The notes under the pieces are model-generated. The model worked only from the letters and a program-made list of their open reading frames with translations, was not told the DNA's origin and searched no databases. From contig JBKGZP010000001.1 of NCBI GenBank assembly GCA_046543335.1, positions 12,234-76,233 on the forward strand: a DNA stretch of 64,000 bases, read 5' to 3'. Source of the DNA: Halobacteriales archaeon (GTDB lineage Archaea > Halobacteriota > Halobacteria > Halobacteriales > SKSH01). Positions 9,488 through 64,000 of the stretch are shown here, in pieces (the stretch's first letter is position 1; every line of letters begins with the position of its first letter). The position numbers and the translations under genes were made by a program.

Positions 9488-9574
9488 TGCGAGGGATGGG
9501 ATTCGAACCCACGACGAGGCTGCCCTCAGCGGGTCTTAAGCCCGCCGCCGTTGGCCTGGCTTGGCTACCCTCGC
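9488..9574 (-). tRNA. tRNA-Leu (anticodon TAA)
   Basis: Acceptor GCGAGGG/CCCTCGC+A, anticodon arm GCGGG-CTTAAGA-CCCGC, long variable arm, GTTCGAATC T-loop; no encoded CCA, no intron. Confidence 0.95.
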
Positions 9575-9619
9575 GCGGATGCGGCTACGGTCGGCGCCGT
9601 TGAAATATCCGCCGTCCGG

Positions 9620-9904
9620 TCACCGGCGGGCGTAGACGAAGCCCATCGTCCCCACGAAGATCATGGCGATGCCGGCGTACAGGAACAGGTTGTACCCGTC
9701 GACGACCCAGTAGGGGGTGAGGATGAAGATGATGCCGAAGGCGACGACGTTGATGGCGAGCACCTTCGGCGAGCGAAGGGGCAACGCCGCGAGCATCGCC
9801 AGGACGAACACCGCGATCAGGACCTGCCCCACGCCCAGCTCGAGGAGCAGGTTGTCGATGAAGTTCAGCGGGATCGCGACCGCGGCGTCGCCCGGGAGTG
9901 CCAT
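9620..9904 (-). CDS. Small membrane protein, hypothetical
   Basis: 94 aa, three hydrophobic segments; TTAA-type promoter about 30 nt upstream. Confidence 0.8.
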   Translation of the reverse strand: MALPGDAAVAIPLNFIDNLLLELGVGQVLIAVFVLAMLAALPLRSPKVLAINVVAFGIIFILTPYWVVDGYNLFLYAGIAMIFVGTMGFVYARR

Positions 9905-9974
9905 CGGTGCCAGGAGATGGCCCCGAGGCGCCCATTAACGTTACTGTTCCTCCGGGGTGAGGTGCCCGATTCGC

Positions 9975-9984
9975 AATTCTTATG
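9975..9984 (+). promoter_or_regulatory. Probable TATA box of tRNA-Gly
   Basis: AATTCTTATG about 30 nt upstream of the tRNA 5' end in otherwise GC-rich DNA. Confidence 0.55.
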
Positions 9985-10012
9985 CGCCATTCGGCGGCTA
10001 GTGCCGGTACGG

Positions 10013-10083
10013 GCGCTGGTAGTGTAGCGGTATCACGTGACCCTGCCACGGTCGCAACCCGGGTTCAAATCCCGGCCAGCGCA
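10013..10083 (+). tRNA. tRNA-Gly (anticodon GCC)
   Basis: Acceptor GCGCTGG/CCAGCGC+A, anticodon loop CT-GCC-AC, GTTCAAATC T-loop; 71 nt. Confidence 0.96.
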
Positions 10084-10085
10084 CA

Positions 10086-10398: not shown

Positions 10399-11793
10399 CT
10401 ACTCGCCCTGCGCTTCCTCGCGGGCGTGCAACTTGGCACGCTCGCGGGCGCTCGGGTTGACGGACTCCTTGAAGGGGACGGTGGCGACCTTCGCGTAGAC
10501 CGGCTCGCCCGGCTCTTCGGCGTACTCGTCGGGCAGGTGGACCTGGAACTCGACGTCTGGTGCGTCGTCGACCTTGTAGGCGCGGTCGTCGAGCGGCACC
10601 CCGAGGGCCTCGAGCTTCTCGGCGGGGACGAACCCCAGCGCGATGTTCGTCTCGAGGTCGGGGTTGTACCACGGCGACGTCACGTAGCCGCACTCCTCGC
10701 CGGTCTCCGGGTCGGAGATGAGCCAGAAGTCCGGGGCGTAGTCGTGGATGGGCTCGCCGGCCATCTTGAGCCCCACGAGCTTCAGGTTGAACGGGTACTC
10801 GCCGTCCTCGATCAGGGCCTTCTGGCGCTCGAGCTCCTCCTTCCCGACGTAGTCGGCCTCCTTGTCGTCCGGGACGTGGTACCCCAGGTTGACCTGGAAC
10901 GGGGAGGTCTCGTGGTCCATGTCCTGGCCCCACGAGAGGATGCCGGCGGCGATCCGGCGGTGGTGCCCGGGCGCGATCACCTGGCCGCCGTGGTCCTTGA
11001 CCGCGTCGGCGACCGGGGTCCAGACGTCCTCGGCGTACTTCATCGAGTCGAGCACGTACACCTCGAACCCCTTCTCGCCGGAGAAGCCGGTCTGGCTGAC
11101 GAGGACGTCTCGGCCGTTGATCTCCGCCTCCATCAGACCGTAGTACGGGATGTCGCTGACCGCCTCGCCGACGAGGTCGATCATGACGTCCTCCGAGCGC
11201 GGCCCCTGGATCTGCATGGGCGAGACGTCGATCTCGTCGATCTCGACGTCGTAGCCCTCACCGACGTTGACCCCCTGGAGCCAGAGCATCAGCGTCGAAT
11301 CGGAGATGGAGAACCAGAACTCGTCCTCGGCGAGGCGCAGCAGGATCGGGTCGTTGAGGATGCCGCCCTTCTCGTTGCACAGGATGACGTACCGCCCGTG
11401 CATCGGCTCGATCTCCGTGGCGTCGCGCGTGATGACGTAGTTGACGAAGGCCTCGGCGTCCGGCCCCTTGACGCGGATCTGGCGCTCGACCGCGACGTTC
11501 CACAGGGTGACGGCGTTGACGAGGGGGTCGTACTCGGCCATCGCCCCACCGTCCTCGGGTTCGACGTACCCCCGCGGGTGGTACATGCGGTTGTACACGG
11601 TCGCCCGCCAGGCGCCCTCCTCGACGGAGAGGTGCCAGAAGGCCGACTTGCGTACCCGCGTCGAGATCAGCATCTCGATGCCGGGATCGCCCGTCTGCCG
11701 GAGGTTGCGTGGAACGAGTCGGTCGGACTGGTCCACGCTCGGGTGGTTGGGGTGGTCTTCCTGCTCCTGTTGGGCCGCGGGATTTTCGGCCAT
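10399..11793 (-). CDS. Stand-alone GcvT-family THF-dependent methyltransferase, DmdA-like
   Basis: R.RKS, TVYNRM, LWNVAVERQI, NDPILLRL.E.EFWFSISDS, QIQGP, TGFSGEKGFEVY, RIAAGILSWGQD; no gcvH/gcvP in the window. Confidence 0.85.
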   Translation of the reverse strand: MAENPAAQQEQEDHPNHPSVDQSDRLVPRNLRQTGDPGIEMLISTRVRKSAFWHLSVEEGAWRATVYNRMYHPRGYVEPEDGGAMAEYDPLVNAVTLWNVAVERQIRVKGPDAEAFVNYVITRDATEIEPMHGRYVILCNEKGGILNDPILLRLAEDEFWFSISDSTLMLWLQGVNVGEGYDVEIDEIDVSPMQIQGPRSEDVMIDLVGEAVSDIPYYGLMEAEINGRDVLVSQTGFSGEKGFEVYVLDSMKYAEDVWTPVADAVKDHGGQVIAPGHHRRIAAGILSWGQDMDHETSPFQVNLGYHVPDDKEADYVGKEELERQKALIEDGEYPFNLKLVGLKMAGEPIHDYAPDFWLISDPETGEECGYVTSPWYNPDLETNIALGFVPAEKLEALGVPLDDRAYKVDDAPDVEFQVHLPDEYAEEPGEPVYAKVATVPFKESVNPSARERAKLHAREEAQGE

Positions 11794-11878
11794 TACGACG
11801 AAAGTACGCGCCGAACACGCCTTAAACTCACATATTCGCTCCCGATTCGCGAGGGACGCGCGCTCGACCGATCGACAC

Positions 11879-27572: not shown

Positions 27573-28103
27573 TCACTCGTCCCGCCGGCGTCGGTAGGTG
27601 GCGACCTCGAGGTCGCCGAGGGGGTCGCGGTCGACGAGCTCCCAGACGTCGGGGTCGATCGTCGGGAAGCGAGCGTCGCCCTGGTACCTCCCAGGGACCT
27701 CCGTGATCACGAGCCGATCGGCCTCGGGGAGGAACTGCTCGTAGACGGACTGGCCCCCGACAACGTAGGCAACCTCTGCGGCCGTCGCCGCGGCGCGTTC
27801 GCGGGCCGATCGGCGGCTCGAGACCACCTCGACCGCCGTCTCGTCGTCGGGGACGTGGTCCTCGTCGACAACCGCCGCCGGTTCGCGCCGGCTCAGGACC
27901 AGGTTCGTCCGCCCGTCGAGCGCGTGCCCGAGTCGATCCACGATGGCCTCGTACGTGCGTCGCCCCATGATGACCGGAGCCCCGAGGGTGAGGCGACGGA
28001 AGTGCCGGAGGTCCTCCGGGTGGTGCCAGGGCATCTCGCCCTCGTCGCCGATCGTCCGATCCTCGGCGACGGCCGCGACGATCACCAGCTCGAGCCCGGC
28101 CAT
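27573..28103 (-). CDS. folA: Dihydrofolate reductase
   Basis: IG..G.MPW..PED..HF, VIMGRRTY, GGQSVY, GDARFP; TGATG overlap with thyA. Confidence 0.93.
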   Translation of the reverse strand: MAGLELVIVAAVAEDRTIGDEGEMPWHHPEDLRHFRRLTLGAPVIMGRRTYEAIVDRLGHALDGRTNLVLSRREPAAVVDEDHVPDDETAVEVVSSRRSARERAAATAAEVAYVVGGQSVYEQFLPEADRLVITEVPGRYQGDARFPTIDPDVWELVDRDPLGDLEVATYRRRRDE

Positions 28104-29098
28104 CACTCGGCCACGGCGAACCGGATGCGTGGATGGGGGTCGTAGCCCTCCAGCTCGACGTCCGCGGGACCGAGCTCGTCCAGCTGCTTGTCGACGATCC
28201 GAACCGTGGGTCGCTCGCGTGGCGCTCGCGTGAGCTGGGTGAGGAGCTGGGGGACGTGATCGTAACCCCGCTCGTCGGCCGGCTCGGCGGGGGCCTCCCG
28301 CTCGATCCATCGGCGCACCGCCCGGTAGTCGTCCGATTCGCTCGCCTCGGCCAGACGCGACCGGAACGCCTCGAGGTTGTCGCCGTACCAGGCGCCCCGA
28401 TCCCCCTTGCCGCAGTAGATGTGCGCGTCGGTCAACGAGTGGGCGAAGGTTCCCGGTTCGAACCCAGTCTCCCGGGCGATCACCAGGAGCAAGAGCGAGT
28501 AGGCGGCGATGTTGAACGGCACGCCGACGGCGACGTCAGCCGAGCGCTGCTCAAGCTTGAGGTTGAGTCGGTCACCCTGGACGTTGAAGGTATAGGTGTA
28601 GTGACACGGGGGGAGCTTCGAGACGGCGGCGTTCGCGGGATGCCACGCGCTGACGACGATCCGTCTCGAATGCGGCTCGTCGCGCAGCTTCCGAAGGACG
28701 TAGGCGAGCTGGTCGAACGTGCCCTCGTCGGTGACGCATGGATGGTCCGCGTCGGGCCAGGCCTCGCCGGGGAGTCGATCCTCCTCTGGGGGGATTGGGT
28801 ACCGTCGCCAGAAGCGACCGTACGCCGTCTCGAGACGGCCCTCCTCGTCGGCCCACTGGTCCCAGATCGAGGTCTGTTCGCGCAGCTCCCGGATGTGCTC
28901 CTGTCCGGAGAGGTACCAGAAGAACTCGTACAGGAGGGAGTCCCAGTACATCGCCTTCGTCGTCAACAGCGGGAACCCCTCGGCGAGATCGACCTCGTAC
29001 TCGTAATGGAACGTGGAGATCGTGTCGACGGCCGTCCGGTTCGGCTTGTACCCTCCCTCTCGGAGCACCGACTCGACGAGCGTCAGGTAGGTTCGCAT
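28103..29098 (-). CDS. thyA: Thymidylate synthase
   Basis: FPLLTTK, SRR..VSAW, LPPCH, QRSAD...GVPFNIA.Y, DAHIY. Confidence 0.95.
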   Translation of the reverse strand: MRTYLTLVESVLREGGYKPNRTAVDTISTFHYEYEVDLAEGFPLLTTKAMYWDSLLYEFFWYLSGQEHIRELREQTSIWDQWADEEGRLETAYGRFWRRYPIPPEEDRLPGEAWPDADHPCVTDEGTFDQLAYVLRKLRDEPHSRRIVVSAWHPANAAVSKLPPCHYTYTFNVQGDRLNLKLEQRSADVAVGVPFNIAAYSLLLLVIARETGFEPGTFAHSLTDAHIYCGKGDRGAWYGDNLEAFRSRLAEASESDDYRAVRRWIEREAPAEPADERGYDHVPQLLTQLTRAPRERPTVRIVDKQLDELGPADVELEGYDPHPRIRFAVAE

Positions 29099-31822: not shown

Positions 31823-33538
31823 ATGACATCGCCCGACGACGAGGAATCCATGTCGACAGATTACGAGATTGCGAAGTCCATCGAGCCGAAGCCGATCTGG
31901 GAGGTCACCGAGCCGTTCGGCCTCGGGCGCGACGACCTTGAGCTCTACGGCGACGCCAAGGCGAAGCTCACGACCGACGCGGTGGAGCGGTTGCTCGAGG
32001 CCGAGGCCGAGGGCAAGCTCGTCCTGGTGACCGGGATGACGCCGACACCGCTCGGCGAGGGCAAGACGGTCACCACGGTCGGCCTCGGACAGGCGTTCAA
32101 CCAGCTCGACCGACAGACGATGATCTGCATCCGTGAGCCCTCCCTCGGACCGGTCTTCGGCATCAAGGGCGGCGCCGCCGGCGGCGGCTGGTCGCAGGTG
32201 CTGCCGATGGAGGACATCAACCTCCACTTCACGGGTGACATCCACGCGCTGACCGCGGCGCACAACCTCATCTCGGCGATGCTCGACACCCACATCGCAA
32301 AGGGCAACGCGCTCGACGTCGACATCAACGAGATCGTCTGGAAGCGCTCGATAGACATGAACGACCGCGCGCTTCGCCAGACCGTGATCGGCCTCGGTGG
32401 ACGCACCGGCGGGACCCCACGCGAGGACGGCTTCTTGCTCACGGCCGCCTCCGAGCTGATGGCCGTGTTGTGCCTAGCCAGCGACCTCGAGGACCTGAAG
32501 GAGCGCATCTCGCGCATCATCGTCGCCTATGACTCCGTCGGCGAGCCGATCACCGCGGGCGACATCGAGGCCGCCGGTGCGGCGGCGATCCTGCTGCGCG
32601 ACGCGATTCGGCCGAACGTCGTCCAGACGATCGAGGGCACCCCCGCCTTCGTCCACGGCGGCCCCTTCGCCAACATCGCCCACGGGACGAACTCGCTCAT
32701 CGCCGACAAGCTGGCCGCCGGCATGGGCGAGTACGTCGTCACCGAGGCCGGCTTCGGCTCCGACCTCGGCGCCGAGAAGTTCATGAACGTGGTCTGTCGC
32801 TTCGGCGATATGGCACCCGACGCCGTCGTCCTCGTGGCGACCGTCCGGGCGCTCAAGTACCACGGCCTCGATATGTGGCCGGCCGACCAGGACGAGCTAG
32901 CCGAGCCCGACGTCGACGCGGTCCGCGCGGGCTTCGAGAACCTCGACAAGCACGTGACCAACCTCCAGAAGTTCGGCGTCCCGGTCGTGGTCGCCGTCAA
33001 CCGGTTCCCCCAGGACACGGACGAGGAGGTCGAGGCCGTCTTGGAGCACTGCCGCGATGACCTCGGCGTCCGGGCGGCCGAGTCGACCGTCTTCGGCGAC
33101 GGTGGCGAGGGTGGCATCGACCTGGCCGAGCGGGTCATCGACGCCGCAGAGTCCGACGAGGCCGACTTCGGCTTCCTCTACGACGCCGACGCGCCGATCA
33201 CGGAGAAGATCGAGACGATCGCGACGGAGATCTACGGCGCTGGCGAGGTCAAGTACGTCGGCAGCGCCGAGGACGACATCGCCAAGCTCGAGGAGATCGG
33301 CATGGGCGACACGCCGGTCGTGATGTCGAAGACGTTCCACTCCTTCACCGACGACTCCACGATCAAGGGCGCTCCCACGGGCTGGGAGCTCGAGGTCAAG
33401 GAGGTCTACCCGTCGGCGGGCGCCGGCTTCGTCGTCGCGCTCACCGGCGACGTGTTGACCCTCCCGGGGCTGCCCGCGCGCCCGGCGGCCGCTGACATGG
33501 ACATCGATCCGGACGGCACCATCTCCGGCCTCTTCTGA
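31823..33538 (+). CDS. fhs: Formate--tetrahydrofolate ligase
   Basis: TPTPLGEGKT, PVFGIKGGAAGGG, NLHFTGD, HGGPFANIAHG, TEAGFG.DLG.EKF; alternative start 31850. Confidence 0.97.
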   Translation: MTSPDDEESMSTDYEIAKSIEPKPIWEVTEPFGLGRDDLELYGDAKAKLTTDAVERLLEAEAEGKLVLVTGMTPTPLGEGKTVTTVGLGQAFNQLDRQTMICIREPSLGPVFGIKGGAAGGGWSQVLPMEDINLHFTGDIHALTAAHNLISAMLDTHIAKGNALDVDINEIVWKRSIDMNDRALRQTVIGLGGRTGGTPREDGFLLTAASELMAVLCLASDLEDLKERISRIIVAYDSVGEPITAGDIEAAGAAAILLRDAIRPNVVQTIEGTPAFVHGGPFANIAHGTNSLIADKLAAGMGEYVVTEAGFGSDLGAEKFMNVVCRFGDMAPDAVVLVATVRALKYHGLDMWPADQDELAEPDVDAVRAGFENLDKHVTNLQKFGVPVVVAVNRFPQDTDEEVEAVLEHCRDDLGVRAAESTVFGDGGEGGIDLAERVIDAAESDEADFGFLYDADAPITEKIETIATEIYGAGEVKYVGSAEDDIAKLEEIGMGDTPVVMSKTFHSFTDDSTIKGAPTGWELEVKEVYPSAGAGFVVALTGDVLTLPGLPARPAAADMDIDPDGTISGLF

Positions 33539-36883: not shown

Positions 36884-38959
36884 ATGTCCACCGACCAAGA
36901 CGACCTCGTCAAGACGATCTGTCCGTACTGCGGCGTCGGCTGTGGCCTCCAGCTCGAGCCGGGGGACGAGCCGGGCGACGTCTCGATCAAGCCCTGGTTC
37001 GACGCGCCCGTCAACGAGGGGGCGCTTTGCATCAAGGGGGGCGCGTCGACCGAGGTGGTGAACCACGAGGAGCGCCTGACGGAGCCGCTCATCAGGGAGG
37101 ACGGCGAGTTTCGCGAGGCGACGTGGGACGAGGCGCTGTCGCGCGTGGTCGAGGAGATGGAGCGCATCCGCGACGCGTACGGGCCGGACGCGATGGGCTT
37201 CTTCGGCTCCTCGAAGGTGGTCAACGAGGAGAACTACCTCATCCAGAAGCTCGCGCGTCGATACGGGACGAACAACGTCGACAACTGCACCCGGATGTGC
37301 CACGCCTCGACGGTGTACACGCTGCGCCAGAGCCTCGGCGCGGGGGCGATGACGAACAGCATGCAGGACCTGATGGAGGCGGGCGACGTCTTCTGGATCC
37401 AGGGGGCGAACCCGGGCGAGCAGCACCCGATCGCGCACAGCAAGTACTTCCGCCAGGCCGCCCTCGACGACGCGACGATCATCCAGGTCGATCCACACGC
37501 GAACAAGACCACCCGCGACGCCGACATCCACCTCCAGCACAAACCCGGGACGGACATCCCGCTTTTGAACATCGTCATCAAGACCATCCTCGATGAGGGG
37601 CTGCACGACGAGGCGTTCATCGAGGAGCGCACCCGCGGGTTCGACCACCTGCAGGCGACCCTCGCCGACTTCGACATGCAGGAGGCCGCCGACATCTGCG
37701 GCCTGCCGCTCGAGGACATCCAGGAGGCCGCCCGGATCTACGCCGAGGCCGACAACGCCGCGATCTTCACCGGCATGGGGATGAGCCAGCACACCTGCGG
37801 CGTCGACAACGTCCAGAACGAGGTCAACCTCGCGCTCATCACCGGCAACCTCGGCCGCCCGGGTACCGGTGTCAACCCGCTTCGCGGCCAGAACAACGTC
37901 CAAGGCACCTGCGACGTGGGGGCCATGCCGAACGTCCTCCCGGGGTACATCAACGTCGACGACGACGCGGCGCGCACCGAGGTCGAGGCGGTCTGGGGCT
38001 TCGAGGTGCCGCCGGAGCCGGGGCTGACGAACGTCGAGATCTCGAACGCCATCGGCGAGCAGATCCACGGGCTGTACATCATGGGCGAGAACCCCGTGAT
38101 GAGCGAGCCCGACTCCCTCGAGGTCGAAAAGCGCATGGACGACCTCGAGTTCCTCCTGGTCCAGGACATCTTCATGACCGACACCGCCGAGTTCGCCGAC
38201 GTCATCCTGCCGGCGACCTCCTGGGCCGAACGCGGCGGGACGGTCACGAACACCGACCGACGCGTCCAGCTGATGCGCCCCGCGACGTCCGTGCCGGGCA
38301 ACACCCGCCACGACCTCGACATCCTGTGCGAGGTCGGCACGCGCCTGTTCGGCGAGGGCTTCGACTTCGACACCCCGGAGGACGTCTTCGAGGAGCTGCG
38401 CACGGTCGCGCCGATCTATCACGGGATCACGTACGACGGCCTCGGCCACGAGGGCATCCAGTGGCCGTGTTACGAGGTGGGCGACGAGGGCGACCAGTTC
38501 CTCTACGAGGACTCCTTCGACACGGATGACGGCCTCGGGGTCATCCGGGGCGTCCTCCACCAGGAACCCAAGGAGGTGCCCGACGAGGCGTACCCCCTCG
38601 TGCTCACCACGGGCCGCCTCGAGGAGCACTACAACACCGGCACGATGAGCACGCGGTCGCCGACGCTCCTGCGGCGCACCCCGGAGAACTTCGTCGACAT
38701 CCACCCGGCCGACGCCGAGGCGCGTGGCATCGAGGACGGCGACTACGTGAAGGTCGTCTCCCGCCGTGGCGCGATCGTCGTCGAGGCGAACGTCACCGAG
38801 GACATCAAGGCCGGCTCGATCTGGACGACCCCGCACTTCTCCGACGCCCGCGGCAACAACCTGACGAACAACGTGATGGATCCGCTCGCGAAGATCCCCG
38901 AGTACAAGGCCGCCGCGGCGGAGGTCCAGCCCGTCGACGGGGCGGTCGGCGACGACTGA
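36884..38959 (+). CDS. fdhA: Formate dehydrogenase alpha subunit (Mo/W-bisPGD, Cys ligand)
   Basis: CPYCGVGC..C [4Fe-4S], NCTRMCHAST, PLRGQNNVQG; no Tat signal. Confidence 0.93.
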   Translation: MSTDQDDLVKTICPYCGVGCGLQLEPGDEPGDVSIKPWFDAPVNEGALCIKGGASTEVVNHEERLTEPLIREDGEFREATWDEALSRVVEEMERIRDAYGPDAMGFFGSSKVVNEENYLIQKLARRYGTNNVDNCTRMCHASTVYTLRQSLGAGAMTNSMQDLMEAGDVFWIQGANPGEQHPIAHSKYFRQAALDDATIIQVDPHANKTTRDADIHLQHKPGTDIPLLNIVIKTILDEGLHDEAFIEERTRGFDHLQATLADFDMQEAADICGLPLEDIQEAARIYAEADNAAIFTGMGMSQHTCGVDNVQNEVNLALITGNLGRPGTGVNPLRGQNNVQGTCDVGAMPNVLPGYINVDDDAARTEVEAVWGFEVPPEPGLTNVEISNAIGEQIHGLYIMGENPVMSEPDSLEVEKRMDDLEFLLVQDIFMTDTAEFADVILPATSWAERGGTVTNTDRRVQLMRPATSVPGNTRHDLDILCEVGTRLFGEGFDFDTPEDVFEELRTVAPIYHGITYDGLGHEGIQWPCYEVGDEGDQFLYEDSFDTDDGLGVIRGVLHQEPKEVPDEAYPLVLTTGRLEEHYNTGTMSTRSPTLLRRTPENFVDIHPADAEARGIEDGDYVKVVSRRGAIVVEANVTEDIKAGSIWTTPHFSDARGNNLTNNVMDPLAKIPEYKAAAAEVQPVDGAVGDD

Positions 38960-53064: not shown

Positions 53065-54885
<1,821 letters not shown>

Positions 54886-56977: not shown

Positions 56978-58819
56978 ATGGCCATGCACGGGGCCACGCC
57001 GGTCGAGGACGCCCTCAGGCGCCTCCTGTTACCGGTGTGCGTCCTGGCCGGGATGATCATCGTCACCGGCTTCTTCTTCCCCGAGTTCGTGGGCACGGAG
57101 GTCAGCGGCGAGGTCTGGCTGGCCCTGTCGCTCGTCTTCGTCGGCGCGGGACTGGGCTACCTCGCGCTGTTACCACTCGAAGGGGCCGGATCGGAGGCGG
57201 CCACCACGTCGGAGGAGGCCTACCTGCTGCGGATCAGGCGGCTCTCGTTCCGAGCGACGCTCGTCGAGTTCTTCGATCGGCAGGACCCGGTCGCCTTCGG
57301 GGTCCCCGTCGGGGCCATCATCGCGTTCTTCCTCGCCCAGGTGTTCGCGCCCGGGGCGACCCTCGACACCATCGAGGCCGTCCAGGCCGTCTTGCTCGGC
57401 GACCTCGGCTGGCTGTTCATCGGCCCGATGCTCCTCGCGGTCGTCGCCGCGGCGTCGTTGCTCCTGGGACCGTGGGGCGACGTCCGCCTGGGCGGTCCAG
57501 ACGCCGAACCGGTCTACACCTACCCCGTGTACTTCACCATGTTCTTTACCGCCGGCATCGCTGCGGGGATCGTCTTCTGGGGTCCGGCGGAGGCGCTGTT
57601 TCACTACGACAGCCCACCACCGTTTTTCGACGTCGAGCCGCGGTCGGACGCGGCGATCACGGCCGCGTTGACCACGGCCTTGTTCCACTGGGGTGTCTCG
57701 GCCTGGAGCGCCTACATCGCGCTCGGGGTGCCCATCGCGTACTTCGTCTACCAGCGCGACGCCCCCCTGCGCGTCTCCGCGATCCTCACCCCCTTCCTGG
57801 GTATCGACGGTCTCGACGGCGTCTGGGGCCGGCTCGTCGACGTCCTGGCCATCTTCGCCACCATCGGCGGGATCGCCACCTCGGTGGCCCTCGTCGGCCA
57901 GCAGTTCCTCACGGGGATCGCCTATCAGTGGGGTGTCGCGACGGGCGACCTCGGTCCCGTGGTGTTCGTCGCCGGCTTGTCGGCCATCTTCATCCTCTCC
58001 GCGCAAAGCGGGGTCCACCGCGGTATCCGTCGGATCGCCAACGTGAACATCGTCCTCTTCGCGCTCCTCGTCGGGCTTCTCCTCCTGTTCGCCCCTCGAT
58101 CGTTCGTCCTCGCCGAGGGTGGGACGGCGTTGGGGCGGTACGCGACCGAGTTCGTCCCACTCAGTCTCACCTTCGGCGACGAGTGGGTCACCGACTGGAC
58201 CGTCTGGAACTGGGTGTGGTGGTTCTCATGGGCGCCGTTCGCCGGTCTCTTCCTGGCGGCGCTCTCTCGCGGTCGGACGATCCGAACGGTCGTCCTCACC
58301 GGGGTGGTCGCCACCTCGCTGGTGACGATGCTCTGGTTCGTGCTCATGGGGGCAACCTCCTTGCAGCTGCAACATACCGGCGAGGTCGACGTGCTGGCGG
58401 CGATGGCCGCCGAGGGAGGGTCGGAGGCCGTCGCTGGGTTCCCGATCCTCGACGCCCTGCCCCTGAGCGAGCTGCTCATCTTCCTGTTCCTGGGGCTGAT
58501 CATCGTCTTCATGACGACCTCGGCGGACACGTCGACGTTGGCGGTGTCCATCCTCGCCTCGAGGACCCACCTCGCGCCGACGACCGGGGCGATCGTCTTC
58601 TGGGGGATCTTCCAGGGGGTGGTGGCGGTCGCGGTCCTGCTCGTCGACGGCGGGACGGCCCTGCAGACCGCGGCCGTCTTGACCGGCGGCCCCATCGCCG
58701 TGGTGGCCGTCGTCGCGCTGATCGGGCTCGCCGCGTCGCTCCGCGGGGCGGAGGATGCCGACCGAACCGCCCTCGGCGCGCTCTGGGCGATGGTACGCCG
58801 GGCCCGAGGGAGCGACTGA
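56978..58819 (+). CDS. Divergent BCCT transporter with an N-terminal 2-TM extension
   Basis: MFFTAGIAAGIVFWG, FHWG, W.WWFSWAPF.G.FLA.LSRGRT, TSAD. Confidence 0.9.
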   Translation: MAMHGATPVEDALRRLLLPVCVLAGMIIVTGFFFPEFVGTEVSGEVWLALSLVFVGAGLGYLALLPLEGAGSEAATTSEEAYLLRIRRLSFRATLVEFFDRQDPVAFGVPVGAIIAFFLAQVFAPGATLDTIEAVQAVLLGDLGWLFIGPMLLAVVAAASLLLGPWGDVRLGGPDAEPVYTYPVYFTMFFTAGIAAGIVFWGPAEALFHYDSPPPFFDVEPRSDAAITAALTTALFHWGVSAWSAYIALGVPIAYFVYQRDAPLRVSAILTPFLGIDGLDGVWGRLVDVLAIFATIGGIATSVALVGQQFLTGIAYQWGVATGDLGPVVFVAGLSAIFILSAQSGVHRGIRRIANVNIVLFALLVGLLLLFAPRSFVLAEGGTALGRYATEFVPLSLTFGDEWVTDWTVWNWVWWFSWAPFAGLFLAALSRGRTIRTVVLTGVVATSLVTMLWFVLMGATSLQLQHTGEVDVLAAMAAEGGSEAVAGFPILDALPLSELLIFLFLGLIIVFMTTSADTSTLAVSILASRTHLAPTTGAIVFWGIFQGVVAVAVLLVDGGTALQTAAVLTGGPIAVVAVVALIGLAASLRGAEDADRTALGALWAMVRRARGSD

Positions 58820-58830
58820 CTCGTCGGATT

Positions 58831-60096
58831 CTACTCGACGTCCGGGACCCACCCGGCCGGTCGGACGTTGGCGATGGAGGTCTCGTAGCCGGCGTCGGCG
58901 ATCGCGCCGGTGATGTCACGGGCGTGGCGCGAACCGGCAGTCTCGACCTGGAAGACGAGGTACGCCTCGCCGACGGCGAGGTCCTCGACGGCGCGCTCGT
59001 GGCGGACGGTCCGAATGTTGGCGTCGTGCGCGGCCAGGATACCCGCGAGCTCGCTCATCTTACCCGGGACGTCCCTGATCCGAACGCGCAGTTGCAGGAG
59101 TTGCTGGCGCTCGGCGAGGGCGTGATCGAGGACCATCTGCAGCATCGGCATGTCGAGGTTCCCGCCGCTGAGGACGGGGACGACCGTCTCGCCGGCGACG
59201 TCGACGTCCTCGTGCAACATCCCGGCCACCGTGACCGCACCGGCGCCCTCGACGAGTTGCTTCGCGCGCTCCAACAGCAGGAGGATCGATCGGGCGATCG
59301 CCTCGTCGGAGACCTCGACGACGTCGTCGACGTGACGGTCGATCAGCCCGTACGTCAGCTCGGAGATGCCACCCGTGGCGATGCCGTCGGCGATCGTGTC
59401 GACGGCCGCTCGCGATTGGGGGCCGCCCTTGTCGAGGCTGTCGGCGACCGTGGCCGCCGACTCGGCCTGGACCCCGACGACGCGCACCTCGGGGGCGAGG
59501 GTGGCGAGGGCGGTCGAGAGGCCGCCGATGAGGCCACCGCCGCCGATGGGGACGATCACGGTGTCGACGTCGGGGACCTGCTCGTACAGCTCGACCCCGA
59601 GGGTCCCCTGCCCGGCGACGATGAGCGGGTCGTCGTACGCGTGGACGAACGTCGCCTCCGGGTTCGCCTCGGCGAGATCGAGGGCGTGTGCCATCGCGGC
59701 CCGAAAGTCCCGGCCGTGTAGCTCGACCGCCGCACCGTATCCCCGCGTCGCGTCGACCTTCGTCTGGGGGGCGGTCGTGGGCATGACGATCGTCGAGTCG
59801 ATCCCGAGACGGGTCGCGGCGAGCGCGACGCCCTGGGCGTGGTTCCCCGCGCTCGCCGCGATGGCGTGCTCGATGCCGTCGGTCTCGAGCGCGAACCTCA
59901 GCTTGTTGTACGCGCCGCGCGGCTTGAACGAGCCCGTCCACTGGAGGTGTTCCATCTTGAGGAACACGCGGGCGTCGACCATCCTCCCCAGGGAGAAGCT
60001 GCGCTCGATGGGCGTCCGCTTGACGACGGTTCGGTCGTCGAGGCGCTCCAGTGCCGCCTCGATGTCGTCGAACCCCACCGCCGCGCCGTCGGCCAT
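58831..60096 (-). CDS. ilvA: Threonine/serine ammonia-lyase with C-terminal ACT domain
   Basis: TGSFK.RGA, ASAGNHAQG, GGGGL, TIADG, SGGN. Confidence 0.93.
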   Translation of the reverse strand: MADGAAVGFDDIEAALERLDDRTVVKRTPIERSFSLGRMVDARVFLKMEHLQWTGSFKPRGAYNKLRFALETDGIEHAIAASAGNHAQGVALAATRLGIDSTIVMPTTAPQTKVDATRGYGAAVELHGRDFRAAMAHALDLAEANPEATFVHAYDDPLIVAGQGTLGVELYEQVPDVDTVIVPIGGGGLIGGLSTALATLAPEVRVVGVQAESAATVADSLDKGGPQSRAAVDTIADGIATGGISELTYGLIDRHVDDVVEVSDEAIARSILLLLERAKQLVEGAGAVTVAGMLHEDVDVAGETVVPVLSGGNLDMPMLQMVLDHALAERQQLLQLRVRIRDVPGKMSELAGILAAHDANIRTVRHERAVEDLAVGEAYLVFQVETAGSRHARDITGAIADAGYETSIANVRPAGWVPDVE

Positions 60097-60198: not shown

Positions 60199-60549
60199 AT
60201 GCCCCCGACTGGCCTCCTGCTCGTCATCTCCGCGGTCAGCCTGGCGTTCGCTCTCTGGGGATCGATCATGGTCGTATATCCGAAGTTGGCCTTCAAGCTC
60301 GAGAACATCCTCCAGCTCCGGTCGGCGGAGTTGAGCTTCCTCGGTCTCATCATGCACAAGAGCGCCGGCGTGCTCCTGATCGCGGTGATGCTCCTCATCC
60401 CACTGTCGTACGGCCTCGTGATCCCCACCATCGCGGGACTCCTCGGGGCGGCCATCCCGCCCGTCTACTACAAGCGCACCCGTGGGGTGTTCGTGGTGCA
60501 GGGTCTCGACGGGGAGGTCACCGGTCCCGACACGTCACGGTTGGTCTAG
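60199..60549 (+). CDS. Small membrane protein
   Basis: 116 aa, about 3 TM; TAAATA box upstream. Confidence 0.65.
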   Translation: MPPTGLLLVISAVSLAFALWGSIMVVYPKLAFKLENILQLRSAELSFLGLIMHKSAGVLLIAVMLLIPLSYGLVIPTIAGLLGAAIPPVYYKRTRGVFVVQGLDGEVTGPDTSRLV

Positions 60550-61439
60550 GGGAGCGAGAGATCGATCCCTTCGAGCTCGCCGGCCGCCTTCACGGCGTTC
60601 CAAAGCAGCATCGTGATCGTCATTGGTCCGACACCACCGGGCACGGGCGTGATCGCCCCGGCGACCTCCTTGGCCCCCTCGAAGTCCACGTCGCCGACGA
60701 GTTCGTAGCCCTGCTCGTTGTCGGCCTCGACGCGGTTGACGCCGACGTCGATGACGGTCGCCCCCTCGGCGATCATGTCGGCGGTGACGAACCGCGGTCG
60801 ACCGACGGCAACGACCAGGATGTCGGCCCGACGGGTCTTCTCGGCGAGGGCTCGCGTCCGCGAGTGACAGACCGTCGTGGTGGCGTTGCCCTGGGGGCCC
60901 TTCTGGAACAGGAGGTTGGCCATCGGCTTGCCGACGATGTTCGACCGACCGACGACGACGGCGTCGGCCCCCTCCGTCTCGACGTCGGCCGCGGCGAGCA
61001 GCCGCTGGATGCCGTGTGGCGTCGCGGGCTTGAAGCGCGCCTCGCCGGCGACGAGGCGACCGACGTTCTCGGGGTGAAACCCGTCGACGTCCTTGCGCGG
61101 GTCGACGTGTTCGAGGATGGCGCCGTCGTCGACGTGGTCCGGCACGGGCATCTGCACGAGGATGCCGTGCACGTCGGGGTCCTCGTTGAGCTCGGTCACC
61201 GTCTCGAACAGCGCCTCGGCCGGCTCGTCGGGATCGATCTCCCGATGGATGCCGTTGATGCCGACCTCCTCGCAGGCCCGTTGCTTCATCGAGACGTACG
61301 TCGAGCTGGCGGGGTCCTCGCTCATGAGCACCGTGGCCAGCCCCGGCGTCACGCCGTGGCCCTCGAGCTCCGCGATGCTGTCCTCGAGGTCGGCTCGGAT
61401 GGCATCGCCGACGGCGTTGCCGTCGATGATGTCGGTCAT
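60546..61439 (-). CDS. folD: Methylenetetrahydrofolate dehydrogenase/cyclohydrolase
   Basis: YV..K, GILVQ.P, KDVDG.HP.N, GRSNIVGKP, DVG.N, TPVPGGVGPMT. Confidence 0.97.
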   Translation of the reverse strand: MTDIIDGNAVGDAIRADLEDSIAELEGHGVTPGLATVLMSEDPASSTYVSMKQRACEEVGINGIHREIDPDEPAEALFETVTELNEDPDVHGILVQMPVPDHVDDGAILEHVDPRKDVDGFHPENVGRLVAGEARFKPATPHGIQRLLAAADVETEGADAVVVGRSNIVGKPMANLLFQKGPQGNATTTVCHSRTRALAEKTRRADILVVAVGRPRFVTADMIAEGATVIDVGVNRVEADNEQGYELVGDVDFEGAKEVAGAITPVPGGVGPMTITMLLWNAVKAAGELEGIDLSLP

Positions 61440-62778: not shown

Positions 62779-64000
62779 ATGAGCGACCTGCCGTCGTACG
62801 CCCGGACGGTCATCCTGGGGGCGGGGATCGTCGGCAACAGCGTCGCGTATCACCTCGCCGAACAGGGTCGCGAGGACATCCTGCTCGTCGACAAGGGCCC
62901 CCTGCCGGACCCCGGCGGATCGACCGGCCACGCCTCGAACTTCATCTTCCCGGTCGAGCACTCGAAGGAGATGACGCACCTCACGCAGGACGCCCGGGAG
63001 CAGTACCGGGACATGGACGTGTTCACCGCGTCGGGCGGGATCGAGGTCGCCCGGACCGACGAGCGCATGCACGAGCTCAGGCGCCGGGTGCAGTCGGCGA
63101 AGGCCTGGGGCGAGCCCGCGGAGCTGCTCACGCCCGACGAGGTCAAGGAGCTCGTTCCCTACATCAACGAGGACATCATCAAAGGCGGCTTCTACTCGCC
63201 GGACGCGGGCGTGTGCGACCCGCTCCGCGCGGGCGAGGTCATGCGCGCCCGGGCCCAGGACAAGGGGGCGCTGGACCTCGCGCCGAACACCGAGGTCGAG
63301 GACATCGTCGTCGAGGGTGGCGCCGTGCAGGCGGTCGTGACCGACCGGGGCACCGTCGAATGCGACGAGGTCGTCATCGCCGCCGGGCTGTGGAGTCCGA
63401 AGCTCGCGAAGATGGCCGGCGTGGAGATCCCCCTGACGCCGGCGGTGCACCAGATGATCAGCGTCGGCCCGATCGACCTCTTCGAGGAGGGCGAGGGCGA
63501 GATCAACTACCCGATCGTCCGCGACGTCGACACCCAGATGTACGAGCGCCAAAGCGGCAACGACATGGAGGTCGGCTCGTACGAGCACCGGCCGATCCTC
63601 TGGGACGTCGATGACGTCCCCTCCATCGAGGAGGCGCCGCTGTCGCCGACGCAGCCGCCGCTGACGCAGGACGCCTTCGAGCCGTCCATGCAACACGCCC
63701 TCGAGATCATGCCGGAGGTGCTCGACGACCCGAACGTCGAGATCCACCACGAGATCGACGGGCTCCTGTCGGTCACGCCCGACGGGGGTCCGCTCGTGGG
63801 TCGCCTCCAGGACGTCGACGGCCTGTGGTCGTGTGCGGCGATCTGGATCAAGGAGGGTCCCGCCTTCGGCAAGGCGCTCGCCCAGTTGATGACGCGGGGC
63901 TACTCCGACATCGACATCCACGCCTCGGACGTCAACCGGTTCTACGAGTACGGCAACTCGCGCCGGTTCGTGAAGAACCGCTCCCACGAGGGCTACCAGA
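62779..64000 (+). CDS. Dimethylglycine/sarcosine dehydrogenase-oxidase family flavoprotein (partial, runs off window end)
   Basis: Manual translation: GAGIVG, GGSTGHA (FAD-linking His), AVHQM, MYERQ, TPDG.P..G; SD GGAGGTG upstream; not in ORF track. Confidence 0.9.
   Translation, partial: MSDLPSYARTVILGAGIVGNSVAYHLAEQGREDILLVDKGPLPDPGGSTGHASNFIFPVEHSKEMTHLTQDAREQYRDMDVFTASGGIEVARTDERMHELRRRVQSAKAWGEPAELLTPDEVKELVPYINEDIIKGGFYSPDAGVCDPLRAGEVMRARAQDKGALDLAPNTEVEDIVVEGGAVQAVVTDRGTVECDEVVIAAGLWSPKLAKMAGVEIPLTPAVHQMISVGPIDLFEEGEGEINYPIVRDVDTQMYERQSGNDMEVGSYEHRPILWDVDDVPSIEEAPLSPTQPPLTQDAFEPSMQHALEIMPEVLDDPNVEIHHEIDGLLSVTPDGGPLVGRLQDVDGLWSCAAIWIKEGPAFGKALAQLMTRGYSDIDIHASDVNRFYEYGNSRRFVKNRSHEGYQ

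Follow-up and report, generated by a model that had tools for sequence, protein, structure and literature searches.

We examined a 64,000-nt stretch of the genome of a Halobacteriales archaeon (contig JBKGZP010000001.1 of assembly GCA_046543335.1; hereafter, the window) and propose a function for the gene at positions 10399..11793 of its minus strand. This gene has an ATG start and encodes P0002, a 464-aa, DmdA-like protein of the GcvT fold that is a candidate glycine betaine:tetrahydrofolate (THF) methyltransferase. A reaction in which P0002 converts betaine and THF into dimethylglycine (DMG) and 5-methyl-THF is, on the genomic evidence gathered here, reasonably likely. That P0002 forms methyl-THF from a methyl donor is highly probable, and, if that chemistry is granted, glycine betaine is the probable donor. 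A sequence-only reading of the window had proposed direct methyl transfer to THF from dimethylsulfoniopropionate (DMSP) or from betaine, in the latter case filling a gap between betaine and DMG. The presence and absence of oxidase, Rieske, MttB, and BHMT genes across genomes support the filling of this gap, and the DMSP option fared poorly.

The likely product is indicated by the company that the gene keeps. We surveyed 251 Halobacteria genomes, comprising 250 of at least 95% completeness and the source genome (G000), and found a P0002-type gene in 49 of them. The window also encodes a short MetF of 277 aa (PF02219; 26691..27524, minus strand), a predicted 5-methyl-THF oxidase, which was found in 50 of the 251 genomes. 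The whole PF02219 family was confined to the same 50, namely, all 49 gene-positive genomes and G086, such that 1/202 gene-negative genomes has a member. A housekeeping role for MetF in methionine synthesis was rejected given that PF02219 was not found in 201/251 genomes. The two genes lie less than 5 kb apart in 33/49 genomes; in 4 genomes they are separated by more than 100 kb, and in 3 they fall on different contigs. Since the pair is kept even when far apart or unlinked, linkage alone does not explain the co-occurrence. The MetF of G086 lies approximately 11 kb from a LigM/DesA-like gene, and in G166, a genome with 13 GCV_T-family matches, a second MetF directly follows one, so that both extra copies go with a known methyl-THF-making family. 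The product of GcvT and DMG oxidase is methylene-THF, for which MetF is not required, and no MetF was found in the 25 genomes that carry a DMG oxidase-like gene without a P0002-type gene. MetF thus follows the P0002 gene and not the oxidase, suggesting that methyl-THF is the likely product of P0002.

The sequence of MetF fits this role in part. The best PDB match of the window MetF is S6MTHFR (7XG9, E 2e-29; next match, 2e-6), which oxidises methyl-THF and couples with THF-dependent demethylases (Yu et al. 2025, PMC11868366). The catalytic E, D, and Q are kept in 58/58, 56/58, and 58/58 MetF sequences, respectively, and among the type 4 MTHFR motifs (L48-P49; F215/C219; P268-F269), P49 is kept in 58/58 and F269 in 57/58. 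The haloarchaeal MetF, which thereby retains two of the NADH-blocking residues, is predicted to work in the direction of methyl-THF oxidation. A thymidylate synthase gene (28103-29098, minus strand) lies near the window MetF gene. LigM/DesA-like genes occur elsewhere in haloarchaea (G000 C31:10890-12209, L210, and L211; two beside or near MetF), and these are candidate archaeal aryl O-demethylases.

The choice of betaine as the substrate rests on what accompanies the gene and on what replaces it. An FAO_M-bearing DMG oxidase/dehydrogenase-like gene was present in 73 of the 251 genomes: 48/49 gene-positive ones (the exception, G249, has truncated neighbours at the locus) and 25/202 others. All of these 25 oxidase-only genomes except G081 and G257 carry, 2.6 to 10.6 kb from the oxidase gene, a close orthologue (E<1e-100) of one Rieske oxygenase, which was found in 11/48 genomes that hold both the P0002-type gene and the oxidase. 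Overall, 71/73 oxidase-bearing genomes hold the P0002-type gene with MetF, the Rieske gene, or both, which is the pattern to be expected of displacement at a step upstream of DMG. The Fisher p value of 1e-8 is an overstatement, given that related genomes are not independent. Thirty genomes have the P0002-type gene, MetF, and the oxidase with neither Rieske nor MttB, and the BHMT family was not found in the 251 genomes. In the ten oxidase-only clusters that we read (eight with the Rieske gene), the oxidase is kept, mostly with a BCCT transporter and an ammonia-lyase and often with SHMT and a monomeric sarcosine oxidase-like gene; neither the P0002-type gene nor MetF was present in them. The Rieske protein has the CxxC pair of the Group V quaternary-ammonium oxygenases (PMC10952381). 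Genes of this Group V type (L026:6483-7670; L103-L108, L113, and L114) were seen in 34/251 genomes, all with a DMG oxidase-like gene, and we recognised no partner reductase in those clusters that we read. The haloarchaeal Rieske protein is itself a candidate archaeal betaine monooxygenase.

The gene neighbourhoods point to the same pathway. We annotated 80 haloarchaeal loci, the best of 536 on GTDB contigs. Genes encoded within 10 kb of the gene were short MetF (58 loci), FolD (37), BCCT (35), serine/threonine ammonia-lyase (34), a DAO+FAO_M+GCV_T flavoprotein (32), Fhs (15), SHMT (11), and a Rieske oxygenase (4); these counts are lower bounds, given that contig edges truncate many of the loci and that the ORFs were filtered. 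No dmdBCD or acuI cluster was among the recurring neighbours of the 80 loci, and an AMP-ligase was present in 6. A DUF8073 protein (Atlas 0.95, archaeal cluster; examples L062:7567-8700 and L093:17602-18792) was encoded in 29/80 of these loci, as well as in some of the Rieske-type clusters, with bacterio-opsin-activator-like HTH genes as frequent neighbours; it was not found in G000 and is perhaps a betaine-pathway regulator. The Natronococcus isolates A-GB7 (L047) and A-GB1 (L055) carry the gene with a BCCT; the "GB" in their names may denote enrichment on betaine, and we found no paper on either strain. Orthologues named from Halodesulfurarchaeum, which we take to be strict anaerobes, were also among the relatives, consistent with O2 independence.

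Bacterial-type loci were collected from metagenomes by a search with the relative P0356, which returned 80 loci; the 52 of at least 3 kb were annotated and the 28 shorter ones dropped, and many of them are near-relatives of each other. In 34/52 the gene lies near DMG/sarcosine dehydrogenase-like, soxA, MetF, BCCT, GbdR-like, or DgcA-like genes. L153 reads soxB-soxA-gene-MetF, and L155 reads gene-MetF-Fhs-peptidase M19-DUF5943-flavoprotein-FeS protein, an arrangement that presumably corresponds to the dgcAB operon. A BCCT-gene-GbdR-like order was seen in L159, L161, and L162, where the GbdR-like protein scores 357 bits, below the cut-off of 480. L181 and L191 are arranged as BCCT-DMGDH-gene-BKACE-carnitine 3-dehydrogenase (DMGDH, DMG dehydrogenase), and L189 is the same with the BCCT not in view; the carnitine 3-dehydrogenase of these three loci is CdhA by its score (649 bits, cut-off 592). 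Carnitine breakdown via CdhA and BKACE ends in betaine.

We propose the following pathway. A BCCT transporter would import glycine betaine, and P0002 would move the first methyl group directly to THF, giving DMG and 5-methyl-THF with no need of O2, cobalamin, or H-protein. The short MetF would oxidise 5-methyl-THF to methylene-THF, which FolD, Fhs, and formate dehydrogenase would carry to CO2. One or more ETF-linked flavoproteins would take DMG to sarcosine and glycine, and SHMT with the ammonia-lyase would convert glycine to serine and pyruvate. The cluster is broken up in G000, yet most of its genes share the contig with P0002, at distances of 15 to 52 kb. Besides MetF, the window encodes the formate-THF ligase Fhs (31823..33538, plus strand; NF010030, 824 bits, cut-off 652), a formate dehydrogenase alpha subunit, FdhA (36884..38959, plus strand; TIGR01591, 756 bits, cut-off 666), and two BCCT transporters with PF02028. 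The first of these (53065..54885, minus strand) passes TIGR00842 (475 > 407), and its best model is the glycine betaine uptake BCCT NF047988 (506 bits, below the cut-off of 650); the second lies at 56978..58819 on the plus strand. They are followed by a serine/threonine ammonia-lyase (PALP + ACT; 58831..60096, minus strand), orthologous to the IlvA of the clusters, by the methylene-THF dehydrogenase/cyclohydrolase FolD (60546..61439, minus strand), and by the N-terminal part (DAO + FAO_M + GCV_T) of a DMG/sarcosine dehydrogenase-like flavoprotein (62779..64000, plus strand) that runs beyond the window. EtfB and then EtfA follow the DMG dehydrogenase-like gene on contig C8. Elsewhere in G000, C12 holds SHMT and C31 a sarcosine oxidase-like gene (33%).

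Several points weigh against betaine demethylation by P0002. Sulfonium compounds are better methyl donors than quaternary ammonium compounds, and N5 of THF is a weak nucleophile. Described betaine routes need O2, homocysteine, or cobalamin (PMC12478193), and, as a milder objection, betaine did not enhance the growth of Haloquadratum walsbyi (PMC3102087), which carries a P0002-type gene. The exclusion between the gene and the Rieske oxygenase is incomplete, given that 11/49 genomes hold both, and the Rieske protein is not proven to be a betaine demethylase: CntA, which cleaves carnitine, is its nearest structure, with Stc2 also near, and it scores 136 bits with the GbcA model against a cut-off of 670. 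Because of kinship among the genomes, and because the genes move together as a cluster, the counts cannot be treated as independent. In addition, 18/52 bacterial-type loci lack any of the marker genes listed above. MetF keeps part of the type 4 motifs, with L48 replaced by S, C219 by V, and P268 by T, A, or S. G000 is 79% complete (1.76 Mb), such that an alternative route may have been missed there; within this limit, queries for MttB, RamA-like, MtgA-like, Rieske, and BHMT proteins gave no match, and none of the three known betaine routes was found. The main complication is MttB, which was found in 7/251 genomes, all 7 of them also gene positive. One such locus, L115 (G034:C1:1764000-1783999), encodes MttB, RamA-like, MtgA-like, MetF, FolD, Fhs, FdhA, ETF, and DMG dehydrogenase proteins in a small haloarchaeal genome whose P0002-type gene lies 170 kb from the cluster, and it looks like a cobalamin route alongside the gene.

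We considered that P0002 could carry out the same methyl transfer to THF with another or broader donor, such as proline betaine, carnitine/butyrobetaine, dimethylsulfonioacetate, or DMG itself. The chemical evidence, namely the co-occurrence with MetF and the kinship of that MetF to S6MTHFR, would be identical. Second copies of the gene with approximately 70% identity were found in 13/49 genomes, sometimes in tandem (e.g., L049:9974-13189); they suggest substrate divergence and may act on another betaine. The likeness of the Rieske counterpart to CntA and Stc2, the butyrobetaine-hydroxylase-like gene upstream of the gene in L157, and the co-occurrence with MttB, which suggests a division of labour, would also fit. 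However, DMG would already be served by the oxidase/dehydrogenase-like gene in 48/49 genomes, often as two paralogues, the operons with carnitine dehydrogenase yield betaine, and the ammonia-lyase and SHMT neighbours point to a glycine and serine carbon skeleton. We regard a donor other than betaine as unlikely, if worth keeping in view.

The placement of P0002 bears on the other alternatives. Pfam finds GCV_T (135.6 bits, cut-off 25.6) and GCV_T_C (26.9, cut-off 25.9) and no other domain, and with the three-domain fold these place P0002 in the GcvT-fold, aminomethyltransferase folate-binding superfamily, as the sequence-only reading had said of the 464-aa ORF. Its view that P0002 is closer to DmdA than to GcvT also held: the best NCBIfam model is DmdA (NF009133) at 237 bits, below the cut-off of 410, followed by the GcvT models NF001567 (153, cut-off 300) and TIGR00528 (133, cut-off 235.85), with Tdm and SoxA models below their cut-offs and ranked after GcvT. 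The LigM and DesA models score 36 and 45 bits against cut-offs of 580 (NF047885) and 800 (NF047633), and identity with LigM/DesA was rejected on these scores. Two annotated DmdAs, used as controls, score 600 and 681 bits with NF009133. The closest PDB sequences are Pelagibacter ubique DmdA (3TFH, E 2e-39) and GcvT 1WOO (3e-36).

Relatives of P0002 are numerous. Of 7998 proteins scored in a word-based search with P0002, 4683 reached E<=1e-20; the top 120 are 76-100% identical and haloarchaeal where named. HMMER, applied to 50%-cluster representatives, found 274 at E<=1e-30. With the relative P0125 as the query, 6127 of 7999 proteins reached E<=1e-60, among them named Proteobacteria and two proteins from EukProt. 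We built trees with FastTree (75 rows) and IQ-TREE (39 rows) from rows picked largely by similarity to P0002; characterised LigM and Tdm sequences and that of P. ubique DmdA were not among them. In the IQ-TREE phylogeny, P0002 falls in a family clade with 100/99 support, whose haloarchaeal members branch from within bacterial rows (100/100, 96/85). "Archaeal", the label given by the sequence-only reading, is thus too narrow for a family that also has members in eukaryote datasets. The family lies inside a DmdA-like superclade (100/99), apart from the DmdA clade itself (100/100), and is separate from GcvT, SoxA, and the DMGDH folate domains; FastTree agrees. In approximately unbiased (AU) tests, grouping of the family with the DMGDH domains was rejected (p 1.2e-6), and grouping with DmdA was weakly rejected at a borderline p of 0.045. 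The AlphaFold2 model of P0002 (pLDDT 90) matches DmdA 3TFH best (369/369 residues, 1.7 A, Z 44.6), with GcvT 1WOS at Z 43.3, the family structures at Z 36-45, and LigM at Z 25; the DmdA and GcvT values are near enough that the fold alone cannot tell DmdA from GcvT. Phylogeny and structure prediction, both proposed as checks by the sequence-only reading, thus kept P0002 outside GcvT and gave DmdA as its top structural match, and together with MetF co-occurrence in 49/49 genomes they support a candidate DmdA-like THF methyltransferase outside glycine cleavage. By the tests made, the P0002 family is widespread, uncharacterised, and DmdA-like, being neither DmdA, GcvT, LigM, nor DMGDH.

Residue conservation was read from an alignment of 239 family members (120 haloarchaeal, 119 other), 8 DmdA-clade rows, and 2 GcvT rows. 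Near-invariant in the 239 members are Y67, N68, E103, R104, N147-D148-P149, S162, E244, Y246, S287, and D291, which are mostly common to the DmdA-clade rows; the two GcvT rows differ at most of them. D148 and E244 are common to all groups aligned, and Y67, N68, E103, R104, N147, P149, S162, D165, S287, and D291 match DmdA and not GcvT. Features particular to the family are an APGHHRR loop (274-280), where DmdA has CPNxIER, and the conserved aromatics Y217, Y218, Y352, F356, and W375. For the roles of DmdA residues in DMSP contact and at the folate site, we assume those generally ascribed to them. The site equivalent to W197 is F237 in P0002; it is W in three, Y in three, and F in two of the 8 DmdA-clade rows, and the Trp/Phe difference was rejected as a DMSP discriminator because of this variation.

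That P0002 is no methyltransferase, serving instead as a folate-binding accessory that captures formaldehyde or methylene from oxidases as the GcvT-type domains of DMG oxidase, SoxA, and Tdm do, is improbable. The fold is the same, the gene is nearly always found with DMG oxidase-like genes, and Hernandez et al. threaded orthologues on DMG dehydrogenase (PMC7487153). However, the AU test separates the family from the DMGDH C-terminal domains, the oxidases have a GCV_T domain of their own, and MetF tracks the gene and not the oxidase. On the same AU test, and with no DAO or FAO_M domain in P0002, we also dropped a DMG dehydrogenase or "DmgdH" label. A true DMSP demethylase that gives methylmercaptopropionate appears slightly less probable still. 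DmdA is the best HMM, PDB, and structural match, and exclusion by the Trp-to-Phe change is weak; against this stand the score far under that of annotated DmdAs, the separate clade with its borderline test, the replaced CPNxIER loop, and the lack of a dmdBCD cluster at the 80 loci. In G000, DmdB, DmdD, and AcuI queries match at 29-36% on other contigs only, and a methanethiol oxidase query gave no match. DmdA in the strict sense was rejected as an identity on the same score, clade, and lack of a linked dmdBCD/acuI cluster. A second glycine cleavage T-protein, the function under which databases annotate the gene and to which GcvT structures lend nearly as high a match as DmdA, is very improbable, given that both GcvT models fall below cut-off, that P0002 lies outside GcvT in the tree, that a true gcvT (406 bits, cut-off 300) and gcvH (169, cut-off 117) adjoin a gcvP-like ORF, judged by eye, on contig C16, and that the conserved GcvT Arg (E. 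coli 223), presumably involved in lipoyl-arm binding, aligns to His278 of P0002.

The ORF itself is a genuine haloarchaeal gene by codon signature, with a G+C content at third codon positions of 0.96 and 19% Asp+Glu, resembling the other real genes of the window; the plus-strand reading of 10399..11793 is a shadow frame and was dropped. The motifs YNRM, WNVAVERQ, NDPILLRL..EFWFSISDS, and ILSWGQD, quoted in the sequence-only reading, are all in P0002. Its N-terminal extension of approximately 40 aa, which that reading had called acidic, is real; its acidity is not, with 8/40 Asp/Glu against 19% in the whole protein. The extension instead carries the family motif PxNLRQ[ST]G (codons 28-35; 11689..11712, minus strand), which runs from P28 to G35 and is conserved in 120/120 haloarchaeal homologues; most of the 119 bacterial and eukaryotic ones also have it, position 30 being N or Q. 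It is absent from DmdA and GcvT, and 8/8 DmdA-clade rows have gaps there. A TATA-like box, TTTAAG, lies 27 nt before the ATG (11821..11826, minus strand) and suggests that P0002 has its own, nearly leaderless transcript, on a haloarchaeal promoter geometry that we assume; a sigma-70 promoter scan gave no match, as expected in an archaeon. In G000 the gene is isolated, with a small Zn-ribbon ORF on one side and tRNA-Gly(GCC) (10013..10084, plus strand), a convergent neighbour without a functional role, on the other; an operon in this genome was rejected. A tRNA-Leu(TAA) and the tRNA-Gly(GCC) occupy 9488-10084, just beyond the 3' end of the gene, and L012 and L013 are alike, indicating that members of the lineage share the relocation of P0002. 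As stated in the sequence-only reading, no gcvP or gcvH was among the filtered ORFs of the window. G000 has five GCV_T-family genes: that of P0002, gcvT (C16), the DMG dehydrogenase-like gene (C8), a LigM-like gene (C31), and a fifth on C40.

Two further observations concern the wider superfamily. Orthologues of P0002 in eukaryote datasets (P0125, P0276, P0292, and P0358; two from EukProt) have N-termini that resemble, by eye, mitochondrial presequences and may give plankton a mitochondrial betaine demethylase. Another DmdA-like clade was seen on the plasmids L095 and L096 (359-379 bits with the DmdA model). In Lichenihabitans its gene adjoins those of MetF, PurU, and FolD, and in Phaeobacter those of OsmC, an enoyl-CoA hydratase, and an acyl-CoA synthetase.

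In brines and oceans, glycine betaine is a major osmolyte, the removal of whose first methyl group is the committed step. The family could represent a fourth betaine route, an O2- and B12-independent, single-protein betaine:THF N-methyltransferase that passed from bacteria to haloarchaea, fills the place of the Rieske enzyme, is common in marine bacteria, and is also found, with a presequence-like N terminus, in eukaryotic plankton; we hold this broader proposal to be about evenly balanced. If true, P0002 would provide the first case of quaternary amine demethylation by a GcvT-fold enzyme, would close the missing first step for approximately one in five Halobacteria genomes (49/251), and would extend the chemistry of DmdA and LigM from S- and O-methyl to quaternary N-methyl donors. 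It would also assign a role to the sequences that at present go under the names GcvT or "non-DmdA" and can inflate counts of DMSP demethylation.

Parts of this picture were in print. The sequence-only reading knew of no characterised archaeal example, and our literature search, with subscription journals mostly outside its coverage, likewise found no characterised family member; orthologues had nonetheless appeared in a "non-DmdA" phylogeny in 2020. There, Hernandez et al. assigned orthologues from Haloarcula, Haloquadratum, and Halopenitus to a subclade labelled "non-DmdA" and "DmgdH", noting Phe for Trp at a DMSP-contact site (PMC7487153). Many true DmdA rows in that study's own alignment have Tyr at the site. 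Its AEM59334.1 matches by eye the Haloarcula hispanica orthologue HAH_RS18290, and CAJ51984.2 and others are close. The "DmgdH" label came from threading, with no substrate or gene context in the available text of the study, and our tree rejects the grouping; the betaine:THF role proposed here would be a previously undescribed activity. In SAR11, the DmdA-like aminomethyltransferase SAR11_1265 adjoins metF (SAR11_1264), for which a second DMSP demethylation step was guessed (Sun et al. 2011, PMC3160333); the likeness to the P0002-MetF pairing is one of description. Anderson et al. (2011) reported DMG oxidase-like genes by BCCT genes in four haloarchaea, and the accessible parts of that paper name no first step (PMC3102087). 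Further sources served as background only (PMC7857596, PMC4325475, PMC11332174, and PMC13595746).

Compared with known systems, P0002 most resembles DmdA (3TFH, NF009133; chemistry reviewed in Bullock 2017, PMC5395565), a stand-alone, three-domain GcvT-fold protein with which it shares the YN, ER, NDP, S, and ExY residues and the superclade. It differs from DmdA in its 26-33% identity, subthreshold HMM score, and separate clade, in the N-terminal motif, APGHHRR loop, and extra aromatics, and in having betaine-pathway neighbours in place of dmdBCD. LigM/DesA with S6MTHFR (ligM-metF-ligH of Sphingobium SYK-6) likewise pairs a GcvT-fold demethylase with a divergent MetF (PMC11868366); the main text of that paper has no "archaea" or "halo", and its supplements, as searched, no Halo, Natr, archae, or DmdA. 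LigM and DesA cleave aryl methyl ethers, and P0002 is distant from them in both score and fold. The described betaine demethylation routes are the GbcAB/BmoAB Rieske monooxygenase, BHMT, and the cobalamin-dependent MtgB(CD) (Mausz et al. 2025, PMC12478193), the last of which also gives methyl-THF, with a dedicated MetF2 proposed to oxidise it. The predicted net step of P0002, from betaine to DMG, is the same as that of GbcAB, BHMT, and MtgBCD; in contrast to them, it would be taken by a single GcvT-fold protein with no Rieske centre, homocysteine, or corrinoid.

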